A stretch of DNA of 64,000 nucleotides from an uncultured bacterium (GTDB lineage: Bacteria; Babelota; Babeliae; Babelales; Babelaceae). The position numbers were made by a program. Shown piece after piece: positions 42,001 to 48,000 of the stretch. The stretch spans positions 1,344,001 to 1,408,000 of the forward strand of contig CAWFXL010000001.1 of NCBI GenBank assembly GCA_963819815.1, read 5' to 3'. The stretch's first letter is position 1; each line of letters opens with the position of its first letter.

Positions 42001-45000
42001 GCTTCCCCGATTAACTATCATGTTAGCGTGCTGATGAGAGACCTGTGCGCCACCTATGGCGAGTTCCCCTTTGATACCTAATTTATCAAGATAGTAAGCA
42101 ACAAAGATAAGTTTTTTGCTCGTGTGGGCAACTTCCTTTTCTGTAAAGTTTCTAAAGAAGCTACCGCAGGTATGCGAGGTTGGGTAACGTTTAGCGCGAT
42201 GCCGTATCATCTCATGGCTTCTGCCTTTGGCATACGCAGCAGCTTCGCGATCTACTCTTTTAAGTTTAAAGGTAGCAGACACTAAATAGTGATTTCCCTG
42301 GTGCAGCAGGGATGTGTTGTACCCAAACTGGAACCAACTTTGATCTACGGTGAGAAGCTTACCGGTCGATTTTTCTATGACCTGGCCTCCGGTCATAAAC
42401 TGACCAAGAAGAAACTCAAAATAGTGGATATTTATAAATACAGCCCCGCCAATGCTGCCTGGGATACCACTAAACTCTTCAAGTCCAATAAGGTGAGTAT
42501 CAAGGCACCAGGCTATGAGTTCACCAAAAGATACTCCTGCGCCGGCAGTGACGAGTGCATGCTCTTCATCAATCATGAGCCCTGAAATGTTTTTAAGCTG
42601 AGGTTTGAGGACTAGTCCTTCAATACCAGAGTCACTAATGAGCATATTTGCTCCTTCCCCAATAAGACACACAGGTAACCTATGGGCGCGAGCAGTATTG
42701 AGTGCTAATTGGAACTCTTCAGCAGTTCGTGGTTCGGCAAAATATGCTGCAGGACCCCCTGTTTTGAACCAGTTTTTATCAGCAAGAGAAACTGAGGGGA
42801 TAATAAGCGAGGTTTCTAAAGGTAATCCATAGGATGACTGAAGCACTGGCGAAGACATGCGTTATTCCTTGCTCTTTTCAAATTCGGCAGGTAGTTTTCT
42901 GAAAATATAGCGTATCTGTACCTCACCGTTTTTAACAAGCTCGGCGCATCGGTCGCTACAGGTATTTTGGTATATACCAATGCAGTCAGGGCAGGAAATC
43001 AGCTGCTTATTGCATTGAGCATTGATACAATTGGTATAATCATCGTTCGGTTTTTTGCAGTGATCACACTGCGCAAGGATATCATCCGTTATTTTTTCGG
43101 TGACTCGGGCATCAAACACGTAGTTTTTGCCTCTGAAGTAACCATCGGGATATTTTTCAGTATAGCGTTGAATGCCTCCCCTAATCTGAAAGACTTCTTG
43201 GGCCACCTGCTTTTTCTTAAGGTAGGCAGTTGCGCGTTCGCAGCGTATACCGCTTGTGCAATACATAAGTACTCGCTTCCCCTTGAATTGATCAAGATGC
43301 GTGTCAAGATACTCAGGCAAATCTCTAAAGTTGGAAATAGGAGGTTTGACCGCATGATTGAATGTTCCCACACGCCATTCATAATCGTTACGAGCATCCA
43401 GTATAACTAAATCGTCGGGATTTGCTGTCATAAGGGCATGCGCTTCTTCAGCAGATAGATGGGTTCCCGCATCTCGTGCAGAGACTTCTTGGGGATCTAC
43501 ACCGAAATTTACTGCCTGGTCTTTTGCCGTTACTTGGAGCCGTGGAAAATAGTCAGCGCCACCATCGCTTTCCTTGAAATCCAGATCAAAAAAGAGAGGA
43601 TGGGAGCGCATAGCTTCTTTGTATTTTTCAGTGGCTTCAAGGGAACCTCCAACAGTTCCATTAATGCCTTCACGTGCAATATAAATGCGACCGGTAAGAC
43701 CAAGCTCACGACACAGCTTTTTCTGCGCAGCTACTTCTAGCGAAGGTTTCTCGATGTCTATGTATTTATAGTAAATGAGAATTTTTCCCATTGGAATGCG
43801 CCCCGATTAAAGGTATCTTTATTTTTAAGTATAGCGCCTTTAAAAAAAAGATGAATGTCTCTTCTTTTCCAATGTGCGAGATTATTTTGCTTTTTGTTGA
43901 GCACATTCCTGCTTGTGGCCGGCATTCCAATCTTGTTTCTGACAATCTTTATTGCAATAATAGAATTTCTTACACCCACTGCATATTTTAAGATCCTCTC
44001 CCCGGTTGCCACAGAAATGGCACCAAGTACTTGTGGCGACAGGCTCGCGTTCTTCCTGCTCATGCTCAAGACCATAGCAAGCTCTTATGAAGCTTTCAAA
44101 GGGGGCATGGGAGTTTCTTTTTAGGCAAGCCACAAGAGCCGATTTATGGCGTATAGCATCGGTAAAATGAACTGGGCGAATGCCATGTTGAGCATTGATG
44201 AGATACAAACAAAGCCTTCCTAATCTTTTTGAGCCCTCTTGAAAAGGGTGAACGCGCACAATATCATAATGGAACTTAGAGCTAATGGATAGTACCTTGT
44301 TCTGACGTTCTTGCCAGGGAAGGTTCTTTATGGCAATAACGGCATTCTGGGCCTCTTCTAAGGCAGCTTGAAGTTCCTTTTCGATAGTTTCTATTGGAGT
44401 AAAGAGGTATATTGAATTTTTAAGGAGAGCTTTTTCCTCGTCCGTGAGCGGATTGAGTAACGTTGGAAATTTTTGGACTTCAAGACTATTGCGGAATTTC
44501 TCAAGAGATTGTGGTGTGGCAGTAACTTCTTTTCGTTTCAGCAAAAAGACAATATAGGACCATTCTTTGGTACATATTTCTTCTCTTATTTGCCAGGTAG
44601 CTTCATCTACTCTGAAGGCTCCGGGTTCTGATACCTCAGGATCGAGACGCGTAAGCCAGGAAGATAAATTCTTGATATCGGTGATGGTCCAACTTTCAAA
44701 TGGCTTTGCAAGGAGGGTTGTTCTACTTCTGTAAAGAGCATAGAACCAGCCCAAAATGACGCACATTTCTTCATTTAGTCCCTCTGCTTTGGCTTGATCC
44801 CTTGTAGAAATATTAAGCGTGGTTGCAAGGAGGGCAGCAATTTTCTCTGGCTCTTGTGAAAAGTTATGTGATGCACCTTGATAGGCTGCATCATAAGTTA
44901 TATTGGGCCATTTCGTGATGGGACTGTCCTCAAATAGTTTTTCCTTACTCAGGCACAATAGAGAAGGTATGGCCAGGAGGACCATCAGAGCTAACATTGG

Positions 45001-48000
45001 TAGACGTGCATTTCGTGTAGTCATCATGAAGATCCTTAATTCTTGGTTTGGGGCGATGGCTTGGTTAGGCACTGTTTTTTGTGTTGAGCTATCCAGTCAT
45101 CCTTTTGGCATTCTTTAGAGCAATAATAGACTTCTTTGCAGGCCGCACATCGCTGAAATCCTTCTCCTTTTTTCCCGCATTTTCCGCATGCAATGATCTG
45201 AGTGAGAGAGAGATTTTTTAAACCTTCTGGTGTTACCATTTGATCTTTGTCAGCAGGTTCCATCGGCTTTAATTTCGCCTCCTCGGCTTCCAAGCATCTT
45301 CTAAAATAGGCTTCAAACGGTAGATGAGATTTTTGAAGAAGGCATTCTATGAGTATTTGATTATAGGCTGCTGGATCGGTAATCTTGAGGGGTTTAATGC
45401 CATGCTGAGCATGGATGATATATTCGCCAAGTCTTCCTAAGCGCTTGGCTCCTTCTATAAAAGGATGGATGCGTACGATATCATAATGAAACTTACATCC
45501 AAGAGAAAGGGCTTGTTGCTGCCTTTGTTTCCAGGGAAGTTCTCGTATACGTCTAAGTTGTTCTTGTATATTCGTCAGGGCAGTAGTGAGTTCTGCTTCA
45601 ATGATATCTTCACTCAGAGGGAAAAGGTGAACTGATCTTCGCAGTAAGGACTCTTCTTCTTTGGTGAGCGGAGCATAAAGGTGAGGCTCATTCGGATGCG
45701 AGCTTTTGACTCGTGCAAGGAGCATTGCATCTACGGAGAGCAGTATTTTTTGGTTTACCAAACTTTTAATATGCTTCCATTCTTCGGCCGACATCTCTCG
45801 TATTTGCCAATAAGTTGGTTCGCCTATGTATCTGAAAGTGCCCGGATGTTTAACATTCTTGTGAAAAAAAGTGATCCATGCAGAAAGGTACCGAATATCC
45901 ATAAGGGACCATGTTTCAAAAGGCTTGGTGAGAAGCTCTTTTTGAGTCTCTTCAATAGCCTTACACCAACCCATGACCGTGCAGGTTTCTTCATCCCACT
46001 CTTCTTTTTGTTCAGATAATGCTTTTGCTTTGGTTGCAACCTTGTCCGTATCATAGCGTGCACCTTGATAGGCCAACGTAGTAACTGTCTGAGGCCACTG
46101 CGTTAGAGGAGCATCTTGATATAAGCTCTGTTTTTCTTGGAGAACCATGCCATGCACCAATGGTGATGCAAAGCTCATAAGAATACTAAGAAGGGTAATC
46201 TTGTTAATAAGCATGCTCTTATACCTTTTGCTGTTCTGCAATTTTGGCACATTGCTTTTTGTGGCCAGCCTTCCAATCTTTTGTTTGGCATTCCTTGCCA
46301 CAATAATAAACAGCTTTGCATATACTGCAGCGCTGCTTTGAATCTTGTTTTCCGCAGGTAGCGCAGCTTGAACTGCTGGCTACGCTTGTTTGGTCGGTGC
46401 TTTCTTCAACAGCTGCAAAGTTCAATAACATGAGCCGTAGGTGTTCCTCGGCAGAGATTCTCTTCTGAGGGCCCGCTGCCTGGGCGGTGCTTTTGAGAAG
46501 ATTATCGTAGCGATCAACATGAGTCTTATAGAATTTTTCAAAGGGCCTATGCGTACCCTCTTTTAAGCTACCTAGCAAAGACTGCGTATATGCTTCAGCG
46601 TTGATAACACAGAGTGGCATTATGCCATTCTGGGAATGTATAATAAACATACCTAGTCGGCCCAATCTTTTTGCAGCCGCTTTGAAAGGATGCACTCTTA
46701 TGATGTCAAAATGGAACTGACATCCGAGTGAAAATGCTTTTTGTTGTCGTTGTTCCCAAGGAAGAGCCCTGGCTTTTGCTAGTTCTTGCTTGAGTGATTC
46801 GAAAGCTGCAATGAGCTCTTTTTTTACATCATCACCTAGAGGAAAAACGTAGACAGTTTCATGTAAGTATGCTTCTTCTTGGGCTGTTAAGGGTTGCAAT
46901 AGTGCCTTCGGGCGTTCCTGAGGATTGTCGACGTATTTTCTTCCTGATGGGGTGTTAACGACTTTTCTAAAGAGTAATGTGTCGAATTTTTCAGTTTCTG
47001 CTTTTGATATCTTACGAAAAGTCCAGCGTACCGGCTCGGTCCTTATAGTTCGAGGATCCTTCTGTGATGATCGTAAGAGCCATGCAGCGAGTTGTGAAAG
47101 ATCATCAAAAGTCCACGTCTCAAAAGGTTTTTTAAGGAGATTCTTTTCAACTTGTTTGACGGCATATATCCAGTCCTGAATGACCCACTGCTCCTCCTGG
47201 GGAAGTGCTTTGAGAGTCTGCTCGAATGCTTCTTTAGAGCTTACTGAATAGTCGTAAGTAGCTCCTTGGTAGGCATTGTCATAAATAGACGTGTTATTGC
47301 TCCAATCGGTTAGTGGTTCATCTTGGTATTGACTCCACTTTCCTTCAGAAAGAATCATGGCATTCATCGAGGAAACGCCCATTATTATGGTAAAAATCAG
47401 TATACGTAATTTCATATTGTCCTTTTGGTCATATCTTTGTAGTTATTTTACTAGTGACACATATGGCTGCGTGCTGTGATAGTGCCAAATCGCTTATAAT
47501 GCCGGCTAGATTTTTATTGAATTGGCATACTTTTTATTCTATCAGAATTTAAAAAAATGGCAATAGGTAACCGCTATTGGCTTGGAATTATTGAGAATAG
47601 GTACTATGCAACCTGATTGACGACTCATACATAGAGGTTTAGTCTGACAAGGGGGCTCGAGGCTGGCTGTGAGCGGATTTCAGTTTTGGATGATAGAGTT
47701 TTATGCAAACTCATGAGATTGCTCCTTATCCTGTTTTTTCCTATACTAGGGAGGCATGATACGAGTATAAAAAAGCAATTATAAAAAATCCTTCCGGGAT
47801 ACAACCCTTATGAAACTTTCCATTTCTTGGATTCTTGACCATATTGCGACAACAAAGAATGATATTGCTCTTCCCGATCTTGTTAAGCAATTTAATGCAA
47901 AAACAGCAGAGATTGATGCTGCTGAGCATATTGTTACCGAGCTTGCCTATCTCTATGCAGTAAACATTACTGAAATTCTAGATCAGGCAGTAGTGGTATC

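Follow-up and report, generated by a model that had tools for sequence, protein, structure and literature searches.

What might a bacterium of the Dependentiae do with three adjacent proteins that each join a hydrophobic N-terminus to a Fic fold and end in a MYND zinc finger, and could their altered active-site loops still catalyse a transfer? The question arose from an initial annotation of one locus in the window (the whole stretch of DNA that was analysed, 64,000 nucleotides), and the tandem trio that it described, with hydrophobic N-terminus, Fic fold and C-terminal MYND finger, was recovered from open reading frames (ORFs), Pfam matches and translations.

46219..47415, minus strand: g01249, ORF of 398 amino acids, Fic fold and MYND; first gene of the presumed operon
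45036..46214, minus strand: g01248, ORF of 392 amino acids, Fic fold and MYND; the protein chosen for modelling
43882..45027, minus strand: g01247, ORF of 381 amino acids, Fic fold and MYND; last gene of the trio
47536..47563, minus strand: pattern match from a consensus scan that resembles a promoter, TTGCCA-16-TAGAAT (with TG), beginning of g01249 ~120 nt downstream of it

An ORF scan placed the genes in tandem on the minus strand with intergenic gaps of 8 nt (g01247/g01248) and 4 nt (g01248/g01249), and they would be old paralogs that share a transcript. Their pairwise identity was close to the 37–39% first given and was recomputed as 39–40%. A second (sister) species carried the same trio with the same flanking synteny, at 88–94% amino-acid identity as counted from residues. 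Relative to this species dN/dS was 0.297 for g01248 and 0.259 for g01247; g01249, the most conserved member, shared 375 of 398 residues with its ortholog in L011 (dN/dS 0.232, dN 0.027). The range for the trio was 0.23–0.30 vs 0.07–0.18 in four neighbouring genes in the same comparison, and g01247–g01249 are real paralogous genes under purifying selection. The flanks were of a housekeeping kind, by names read from translations: a 309-aa ORF (TrhO-like) and a 327-aa ORF (MurB) lay downstream of the trio, and a divergent 788-aa ORF called PheT lay upstream.

The Pfam Fic domain matched g01247 (33.4 bits) and g01248 (28.5 bits) above the cut-off of 24 and g01249 below it (21.1 bits); g01249 matched the family profile A3 with an E of 3.8e-109. 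By both profile and structure, the best match of the trio was FICD/HYPE (human; FIC-1 in C. elegans), the AMPylase/deAMPylase of BiP in the ER lumen. Profile HMM alignment of the family to FICD gave an E of 5.9e-14, and a deeper alignment raised the AlphaFold2 model of g01248 from the moderate confidence of the initial annotation (pLDDT 73.6) to a pLDDT of 82.0 and a pTM of 0.71, with FICD still the best fold (Foldseek probability 1.0). In VIA-align, residues 29–318 of the model aligned with residues 200–433 of FICD (4u04_A) at Z 20.4 and an rmsd of 3.5 Å over 212 residues, and other Fic effectors gave a Z of 13.3 (AnkX), 14.1 (IbpA) and 13.6 (BepC FIC); residues 1–27 of the model had a pLDDT <50. 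As modelled, the fold is of the larger FICD type and is not Doc-like. Like FICD, the trio has an N-terminal helix at the presumed inhibitory-helix position; unlike FICD, it has no TPR repeats, and it carries the C-terminal MYND finger and an insertion in the flap.

45633..45797, minus strand: g01248 residues 140–194, helical insertion of ~55 residues between short strands 135–137 and 195–197, from DSSP of the model

In the model these two strands correspond to the target-binding flap of Fic proteins. The HMM alignment to FICD was broken at the insertion, the length of which varied among relatives.

The active-site loops departed from the AMPylator consensus exactly as first described, with Asn replaced by Ser or Ala, Gly replaced by Lys, and the His and final Arg kept.

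44215..44250, minus strand: active-site loop of g01247, HPFQEGSKRLGR, from the translation
45432..45467, minus strand: active-site loop of g01248, HPFIEGAKRLGR, from the translation (H250...K257 R258...R261)
46657..46692, minus strand: active-site loop of g01249, HPFKAAAKRLGR, from the translation; Ala replaces the acidic residue 5, Gly6 and Asn7
46062..46079, minus strand: g01248 T46-L-A-Y-Q50-G51, candidate counterpart of the inhibitory-helix motif [ST]xxxE[GN], with Gln replacing Glu

His, Lys8, Arg9 and Arg12 were present in all three loops, with Ser or Ala at position 7, and the active-site motif of the g01249 ortholog P0007 was identical to that of g01249. H250, K257, R258 and R261 (g01248 numbering) were invariant in an eight-sequence alignment. 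FICD, in contrast to the (S/A)K of the trio, has the loop HPFxDGNGRxxR, and it has an inhibitory/catalytic Glu in TVAIEGN at what would be the position of the Gln in the trio. A sequence scan of the three proteins for the canonical inhibitory motif [ST]xxxE[GN] gave no match; all three paralogs had xxxxQG at residue 46, and the putative inhibitory helix of g01248 was placed at T46–G51 by extending the HMM alignment to FICD gap-free, using FICD residue numbering that we presume to be correct.

The Lys-Arg pair at loop positions 8–9, present together with the catalytic His in the EF-Tu kinase toxins of the Doc type, had led to a proposed likeness to Doc, and this pair stood as the only resemblance. 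Unlike Doc, the trio has Arg12, lacks Asn7, and combines a larger, FICD-like fold (Z 20.4) with an export signal and MYND; its scores against the NCBIfam Doc model TIGR01550 reached at most 13.5 bits (cut-off 38.65). The loop of this genome's own Doc reads HPFFDGNKRTGI. Consensus motifs of Doc keep Asn7 and have a residue other than Arg at position 12 (PMC4454073), and Doc itself is described as a protein of ~125–130 aa that is built on a 6-helix core and paired with an antitoxin (PMC4177925). Convergence would most simply account for the Lys8 common to both. Lys at position 8 of Doc forces inverted ATP binding and kinase activity, and AnkX also has an inverted donor (PMC4177925); a side chain at the same Gly position of Bep8 blocks triphosphate binding (PMC8401265). 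If Doc and Bep8 are a guide, the Lys of the trio would block the usual triphosphate nest, so that canonically oriented AMP transfer is unlikely and the most likely reaction would be transfer of a different phosphoryl-linked group, with an inverted or different donor. For g01247 and g01248 this could be either a Doc-like phosphorylation or, following AnkX, the transfer of a phospho-X group; g01249 may be metal-independent or inactive, since its loop lacks the metal-binding acid.

Only five clusters of relatives had been reported, a figure that we reproduced and that was a product of the word-indexed search; exhaustive profile search gave 3875, 229 and 43 representatives at E ≤ 1e-3, 1e-10 and 1e-30, respectively. 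The trio are no rare orphans and belong to a family of considerable size. Every relative that could be placed taxonomically belonged to the Dependentiae, and this lineage-specific family comes in multiple copies, several relatives lying in tandem arrays. Among the 48 best relatives, 32 had Lys at motif position 8, 26 had MYND and 37 had a signal-like N-terminus (at least 7 of 10 residues hydrophobic). Several relatives read N-K-R, the loss of Asn7 being peculiar to the clade of the trio.

The catalytic His was lost from 11 of the 26 MYND-bearing close relatives, and a non-catalytic role is therefore a serious rival; overall it was lost from 17 of the 48 best relatives. In such a scaffold or pseudoenzyme, which is the main rival and which we consider somewhat unlikely, the Fic fold would be a protein-binding module that acts with MYND to connect host proteins or to move them elsewhere, and the conserved residues of the loop would bind a ligand or partner without catalysis. 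There is a precedent in the FIC domain of BepC from Bartonella, which is reported to act as a protein-binding module with GEF-H1; BepC shares with the trio a loop that departs from the canonical one, in its case by a Lys at position 5, and differs in having its substitution at another position, OB and BID domains and type IV delivery. The invariance of R9 and R12 even in relatives without the His agrees with a scaffold, and in g01249 the loop that departs furthest from the consensus goes with the lowest dN of the three, which would suit binding no less than catalysis. On the other hand, H, K8, R9 and R12 were invariant in 12 of 12 leaves of the trio's clade at 37–43% overall identity, whereas sister clades had Q, L, N, R, K, S or A in place of the His, and the GxFR element and flap strands were retained in alignment and model. 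Since the Fic fold tolerates loss of the His in these sister clades, it can be argued that the His of the trio has been kept for catalysis. Ordinary AMPylation or another NMP transfer (e.g. UMPylation), constitutively active without the inhibitory Glu, would agree with FICD as nearest match in fold and sequence, with the His, R9 and R12 of the trio, with a residue 5 that is acidic in two of its members, and with relatives that combine a canonical GNGR motif and MYND (P0096, P0113 and P0133, among others in the same search); this reading is improbable, since Asn7 is missing and the second Gly position of the nest is taken by Lys, which is reported to prevent canonical triphosphate binding in Doc (PMC4177925), as a side chain there does in Bep8 (PMC8401265).

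The finger itself occupied the last ~40 residues of each protein, with Pfam zf-MYND scores of 44.2 (g01247), 46.9 (g01248) and 42.4 bits (g01249) over a cut-off of 22.7.

46249..46365, minus strand: MYND zinc finger of g01249, C4-C2HC (Pfam and translation)
45069..45188, minus strand: MYND zinc finger of g01248 (Pfam and translation)
43903..44022, minus strand: MYND zinc finger of g01247 (Pfam and translation)

Its Cys/His ligands were invariant in the eight-sequence alignment, and among solved sequences the g01248 finger was nearest to MYND of SMYD2 (E 3.1e-6), then to SMYD1, DEAF1 and CBFA2T1/ETO. As in these eukaryotic domains, the full set of eight Zn ligands is present together with the conserved Q..W of the final helix. 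The tail is a bona fide MYND finger; it differs from them as the C-terminal tail of a bacterial protein with an export signal. The finger recurs in this genome, as the initial annotation had stated, although its count of 12 domains on 11 proteins became 14 matches over cut-off on 13 frames in a six-frame search, one of them an 81-aa frame with a stop. MYND was present in 38 of 261 genomes of the phylum (32 of 260 Babelales had been given), in 9 of 9 genomes of the genus, as claimed, and over cut-off in 0 of 14 control prokaryote genomes.

Signal-like N-termini, also part of the annotation, were called with a charge/uncharged-run heuristic of our own rather than SignalP. Each trio protein began with 1–2 positive charges followed by 19–21 uncharged residues and a plausible −3/−1 site.

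47359..47415, minus strand: signal-peptide-like N-terminus of g01249, MKLRILIFTIIMGVSSMNA; 2 positive charges and a 19-residue uncharged run (heuristic)
46149..46214, minus strand: signal-peptide-like N-terminus of g01248, ending in VHG (heuristic)
44947..45027, minus strand: signal-peptide-like N-terminus of g01247 (heuristic)

Further MYND proteins of this genome had the same feature in 6 of 6 cases checked, which extends the earlier view of MYND as a recurrent module. FICD also has an N-terminal hydrophobic targeting segment, which puts its Fic domain outside the cytosol. The genome had four secretin ORFs and two T2SS-type ATPases over cut-off, and a Sec and type II system with a very high share of signal-peptide proteins is reported for the phylum (PMC6561590 and PMC4776705). 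A Cys-rich zinc finger would need to survive periplasmic passage, which we counted against export; DsbA was not found in the genome assembly (88% complete).

The uncharged N-terminal runs of 19–21 residues could be membrane anchors instead of cleaved signals, and together with the housekeeping neighbours they would suit envelope proteins that act on, or are anchored to, the bacterium's own periplasm or membrane, with MYND making bacterial protein contacts. An envelope role has a small chance of being correct. Free-living prokaryotes are essentially devoid of MYND (0 of the 14 controls), and on other proteins of this genome the initial annotation had described it next to ankyrin repeats or a RING finger. 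The family, as far as its members could be placed, is confined to host-dependent Dependentiae and evolves 2–4 times faster than its neighbours, and the periplasm is not generally expected to contain donors of the ATP type. A toxin-antitoxin or anti-phage role is highly improbable: weak matches of ~30 bits, one to SoFic and one to PDC-S04, a candidate family of PADLOC, and the true MazE/AbrB-Doc pair elsewhere in the genome speak for it, but the PADLOC matches span the generic Fic core only, and the trio has export signals, a MYND tail, a length of 380–400 aa and a housekeeping context, and has no antitoxin partner.

Our preferred, still tentative reading is that the trio are Sec-exported, host-directed Fic-fold effectors that dock through MYND and carry out a non-AMPylating, phosphoryl-linked transfer. 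Host-directed Fic-fold proteins are known in AnkX (the Legionella phosphocholine transferase), VopS, IbpA and the Beps, and the ankyrin repeats of AnkX are a fused eukaryote-type protein-binding module comparable to MYND in the trio. These effectors, to our knowledge, also lack the canonical inhibitory Glu; unlike the trio, with its Sec-type signals, Lys8 and MYND, they reach the host by type III or IV secretion and have retained a GNGR loop. Host direction of the trio is suggested by the distribution of MYND (0 of 14 controls, 9 of 9 in the genus) and by the lineage-specific, multi-copy family with its tandem arrays. The N-terminal Sec-type signal would take each protein across the inner membrane, with onward release probably by type II/secretin machinery or vesicles. 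Eukaryotic MYND domains bind PxLxP motifs, and MYND of the trio, joined by a flexible linker to the FICD-type Fic domain, could dock each protein on a host partner with a proline-rich motif, where a loop retaining the general-base His and both Arg, with Lys for Gly at position 8 and Ser or Ala for Asn, would act on eukaryotic host proteins. Overall, these proteins of an intracellular Dependentiae bacterium are likely host-directed effectors.

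The trio of paralogs occupied adjacent open reading frames (ORFs) on the minus strand of the window:

46219-47415, minus strand: g01249, ORF of 398 aa
45036-46214, minus strand: g01248, ORF of 392 aa
43882-45027, minus strand: g01247, ORF of 381 aa

The genes were arranged head to tail with 4 and 8 nt between successive ORFs and, because of this spacing and of a sigma-70-like site (TTGCCA-16-TAGAAT, found by pattern scan) ~120 nt upstream of g01249, the first gene of the trio, they are most simply read as a single operon. Downstream lay ORFs of 309 aa (TrhO-like), 327 aa (MurB) and 218 aa (LysE-type) and upstream, in divergent orientation, ORFs of 788 aa (PheT) and 155 aa (LspA), all named by reading their translations. 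The G+C content of the region (0.41–0.45) was equal to that of its surroundings. Elsewhere in the window (39519-41213, plus strand), a protein of 564 aa that begins with a hydrophobic segment contained repeated sCache_2 modules (Pfam E 9.5e-41 over three matched stretches), i.e., ligand-binding sensor modules without an obvious output domain.

Pairwise identity among the three paralogs was 39–40%. Scans of genome contigs and of metagenome contigs for related loci both returned solely one contig, from a Dependentiae MAG of a sister species (locus L011), which carried the trio in identical order adjoining the same 309-, 327- and 218-aa ORFs; the triplication is thus older than the split of the two species. 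Between these orthologs, 335 of 381 residues were identical for g01247 (dN/dS 0.259), 343 of 392 for g01248 (dN/dS 0.297) and 375 of 398 for g01249 (dN/dS 0.232; all Nei-Gojobori), and four neighbouring genes gave dN/dS values of 0.084, 0.066, 0.183 and 0.095 versus the sister species. The trio genes are real, and purifying selection acts on every copy, at a level 2–4 times more relaxed than that on the housekeeping genes around them. The sister locus also held two added genes between its PheT-like ORF and the trio (L011 3662-6403), one for a DUF1706 protein of 193 aa and one for an ankyrin-repeat protein of 668 aa; in the window this space is a stretch of just 394 nt (47416-47809), so that the two species differ by an insertion or deletion beside the trio.

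Pfam Fic (PF02661, gathering cut-off 24 bits) matched g01247 at 33.4 bits and g01248 at 28.5 bits, and g01249 at 21.1 bits, which is under the cut-off, yet g01249 matched the family profile with E 3.8e-109. The active-site loops read from the translations were HPFQEGSKRLGR, HPFIEGAKRLGR and HPFKAAAKRLGR. Counting from the catalytic His as position 1, the translations bore out the initial annotation's description of these sequences, with His, Lys8, Arg9 and Arg12 kept and Asn7 replaced by Ser or Ala. The canonical AMPylator motif HxFx(D/E)GNGRxxR was therefore absent from all three, as position 7 was S/A rather than N and position 8 was K rather than G. In g01249, positions 5 and 6 of the loop were both Ala.

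The same annotation had called this motif Doc-like. The Lys8-Arg9 pair is indeed common to Doc and the trio; however, the consensus loop of Doc is given as HxFx(D/N)(A/G)NKR with a non-Arg residue at position 12 (PMC4177925, PMC4454073), whereas the trio lacks Asn7 and has Arg12. With the NCBIfam Doc model TIGR01550 (cut-off 38.65 bits), g01247 scored 13.5 bits, and g01248 and g01249 were not listed at E ≤ 1. Doc is also a small toxin of one domain whose gene adjoins that of its antitoxin; the trio proteins, in contrast, are 381–398 aa long with a signal-like N-terminus and a MYND finger, and their neighbours are paralogs and housekeeping genes. The likeness to Doc thus held for the Lys-Arg pair and failed for positions 7 and 12 of the loop, the Doc model and the fold, which is FICD-type.

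A total of nine Fic matches were found in the 1.64-Mb genome, comprising the trio and six further Fic-domain ORFs (loci L023–L028). Three of the latter were class II Fic proteins with HPF/YxDGNGRxxR loops and the inhibitory motifs SSAIEG, SSKIEG and STMIEG; the others were a 166-aa GNGR protein, a 314-aa protein with HPFDDGNGGTAR (Arg9 replaced by Gly) and a 131-aa Doc. With a MazE/AbrB-type antitoxin of 100 aa (25.3 bits in Pfam) encoded just ahead of it in an overlapping gene, this Doc, which has the loop HPFFDGNKRTGI and scored 62.1 bits with Pfam Fic, makes up a classical toxin-antitoxin pair (G000:C1 ~755300-755995; L026 1175-1869). A defence reading of the trio was rejected, as the PADLOC matches (PDC-S04, SoFic) were weak (~30 bits) and covered the generic Fic core only.

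Structure prediction placed the trio with large Fic proteins. The AlphaFold2 model of g01248, built on a 14-sequence alignment, reached pLDDT 82.0 and pTM 0.71, with low confidence confined to residues 1–27 (putative signal), 320–338 (linker) and the last 6 residues. FICD was the best match of the family profile among solved structures (E 5.9e-14, query 163–274), followed by C. elegans FIC-1 and BT_2513, and FICD/HYPE was also the top Foldseek match (E 3.8e-5, TM 0.38–0.49). In VIA-align, FICD 4u04_A aligned over 212 residues (Z 20.4, rmsd 3.5 Å; model 29–318 versus FICD 200–433), ahead of BT_2513 (Z 17.2), CdFic (16.7), IbpA (14.1), AnkX (13.3) and AvrB (12.7), with many further Fic chains at Z 13–17; in a search of the ESM Atlas with residues 28–320, all clusters were either generic Fic or unnamed. 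The predicted fold is that of a Fic protein (an alpha-helical core with the active-site loop between helices) of the large FICD type, N-terminal helices included, and not the small Doc core. Short strands at 135–137 and 195–197 of the model correspond to the target-binding flap and were parted by about 55 confidently helical residues (143–194). The HMM alignment to FICD broke exactly at this insertion, the length of which varied among relatives, and it is here that divergence in substrate specificity would be expected.

A regular-expression search for the inhibitory motif [ST]xxxE[GN] of class I–III Fic proteins gave no match in any trio protein. All three carried x-x-A-Y-Q-G at residue 46 (T/D-x-x-x-Q-G; T-L-A-Y-Q-G in g01248). 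By gapless extension of the HMM alignment, T46...Q50-G51 of g01248 falls on what we take to be T230...E234-G235 in FICD numbering, and the helix pattern of the model was compatible with this placement. If the extension is right, the inhibitory/deAMPylation Glu would be replaced by Gln in the trio. The VIA-align ranges (212 of about 290 residues aligned) are too coarse to place this Gln versus the Glu, and a profile-profile comparison between the family and the three class II Fic proteins encoded elsewhere in this genome aligned only the core (185–299), the AYQGA and SxxIEG regions falling outside.

The C-terminal ~40 residues of g01247, g01248 and g01249 matched Pfam zf-MYND (PF01753, cut-off 22.7) at 44.2, 46.9 and 42.4 bits, respectively. 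The complete C4-C2HC ligand set (C343, C346, C356, C359, C365, C369, H378 and C382) was invariant in 8 sequences, and the finger was closest to the MYND domain of SMYD2 (E 3.1e-6). MYND domains over the cut-off occurred in none of 14 control prokaryotes. Within the phylum, 38 of 261 genomes had them, and so did all nine genomes of the genus; the genome of the window held 14 such matches. One of these (C1:498917-499024, 36.6 bits) lay in an 81-aa frame cut by TAA and is likely to be a pseudogene or the fragment of a gene. Another MYND protein, of 402 aa (C1:1308388-1309596; L004 655-1863), had ~350 N-terminal residues that matched no Pfam family, and a 384-aa MYND protein from another Dependentiae family (L018, genome G132) resembled it in layout; the two may form a further family with a MYND tail and no recognised fold.

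The family to which the trio belongs is far from rare. The five protein clusters among 5.8 billion cited initially were reproduced, but they came from a word-indexed search, which requires shared 5-residue words, and are superseded by an exhaustive profile search. The query, a profile of the Fic part from 12 sequences without signal and MYND, kept eukaryotic MYND proteins from flooding the list and found, among 1.84 billion representatives, 3875 proteins at E ≤ 1e-3, 229 at E ≤ 1e-10 and 43 at E ≤ 1e-30. In the best 48 relatives aligned to the profile, the His was kept in 31, position 8 was Lys in 32 and Gly in one, and MYND was present in 26, 11 of which lacked the His; 37 of the 48 had an N-terminal window with at least 7 of 10 hydrophobic residues. 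MYND was found on 39 of 151 aligned proteins and was confirmed with Pfam in 24 of 65 (P0006–P0070; P numbers denote relatives from this search). The loop was HPFxEG(S/A)KRLGR in the trio's clade, HxFxEGNKR(L/T)(G/A)R in further relatives and HPWHEANKRTGK in a large clade; dead forms such as RPWPKRNKATAR also occurred, and canonical HPFxDGNGRxxR appeared in lower-ranked proteins, some with MYND (P0096, P0113, P0133). Of the 261 genomes of the phylum, 10 had family-wide matches (E ≤ 1e-20), including five of the eight other genomes of the genus. The HPWHEANKRTGK clade was found in 4 of the 261 genomes, all of one taxonomic family, with tandem arrays in G031, and L020, a locus from another family within the order, had HPFEHGNKRTAR without MYND. 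Every relative that could be placed taxonomically was from Dependentiae, placement being through the 261 genomes of the phylum since the 1.84-billion library carries no names.

In a FastTree phylogeny of the top hits, the trio, P0001–P0008 and P0016 formed one 12-leaf clade in which all members had H..KR..R; g01247 grouped with P0006 and P0005, g01248 with P0001, and g01249 with P0007, P0003, P0002 and P0004. In sister MYND-bearing clades, the His was replaced by Q, L, N, R, K, S or A. Lys8 required 7 Fitch changes on 143 leaves (midpoint rooting) and was clustered without being cleanly monophyletic, and a single origin is therefore not claimed. Tandem paralogs of the wider Lys8 Fic family were found in other Dependentiae at G031:C2:1606880-1611931 (four), G033:C2:270900-273314 (two) and G218:C6:61167-63841 (three), and tandem amplification is thus a recurrent trait of the family. 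In P0035 (392 aa), the MYND domain (residues 97–136) lay near the N-terminus and preceded the Fic part (HPWKEGNKRTAL) instead of forming the C-terminal tail; the Fic-MYND fusion apparently came about, or was rearranged, on more than one occasion.

By our own heuristic, each trio N-terminus had 1–2 positive charges, an uncharged run of 19–21 residues and candidate -3/-1 sites, suggesting Sec-type signal peptides or, alternatively, signal anchors. Signal-like N-termini were seen in all six other MYND proteins of the genome that were examined, and four secretin ORFs and two T2SS-type ATPases exceeded their Pfam cut-offs. DsbA (PF01323) had no match in the 88%-complete genome, which offers no more than a faint hint regarding the periplasm. 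Signal peptides were reported on 44% of Chromulinavorax CDS, with Sec as the proposed route (PMC6561590), and T2SS components with two gspD copies were described as common to the TM6 genomes studied (PMC4776705).

In Doc, Lys at position 8, where canonical Fic proteins have Gly, was described as forcing an inverted ATP, leading to phosphorylation instead of AMP transfer (PMC4177925); in Bep8, triphosphate binding seems to be precluded by a side chain at this "G2" position, and the same study repeats the point for Doc (PMC8401265). By analogy, canonical AMPylation by the trio is therefore unlikely, and transfer from an inverted or different donor is the most economical catalytic hypothesis. The 2015 Fic/Doc census describes five consensus loops, of which the Lys-bearing ones have a non-Arg residue at position 12 or Gln for His (PMC4454073); compared to these groups, Lys8 together with Arg12 on a FICD-type fold without Asn7 falls outside all five.

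The initial observation stands and its interpretation holds in part: a Fic-MYND trio with signal-like N-termini and a loop off the AMPylator consensus survives, the rarity of the family does not. That the trio are host-directed effectors with a non-AMPylating transfer activity is the best reading, if a tentative one, to which we give a little less than an even chance. Its main rival, a non-catalytic scaffold, we consider rather unlikely. BepC, which has Lys at position 5, was described as having no known activity and as acting by binding GEF-H1 (PMC8401265), and catalysis by g01249, which lacks the acidic residue 5, is doubtful. The His, however, is conserved throughout the trio's clade yet freely replaced in sister clades, which argues that catalysis has been retained in the former. 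The transfer reading can be extended to a Dependentiae-own class of exported, FICD-derived Fic enzymes, in which Lys at the second Gly, gained independently of Doc with Arg12 kept, would make a host-directed protein kinase or another phosphoryl-X transferase with an inhibitory helix disarmed by Glu-to-Gln exchange. Under this extension, which we regard as improbable in its full form, a eukaryote-derived MYND finger would target the enzyme to host proteins with proline-rich motifs, the trio would be three specificity variants and His-less relatives would serve as decoys or adaptors that derive from them.

The Fic fold of the trio is known; the loop class and the domain fusion are new. No description of a Fic-MYND fusion or of a bacterial MYND protein was found in open-access full text and bioRxiv, with the papers listed for bacterial effectors covered at the level of title and abstract. 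Dependentiae live inside protists as widespread and mostly uncultured parasites, and we know of no Dependentiae effector with a known mechanism. The trio family is a tractable effector candidate, combining a soluble enzyme fold of ~300 residues, a catalytic-site hypothesis and a recognisable host-docking module. It bears on the rule that Lys at G2 means an inverted nucleotide and a kinase, outside the small Doc toxins, and its His-bearing and His-less paralogs offer a natural series for the change from enzyme to pseudoenzyme in effector families. Should the reading as a Dependentiae-own kinase or transferase prove true, the phylum would gain its first effector family defined at the enzymatic level, and MYND its first use by a bacterium.
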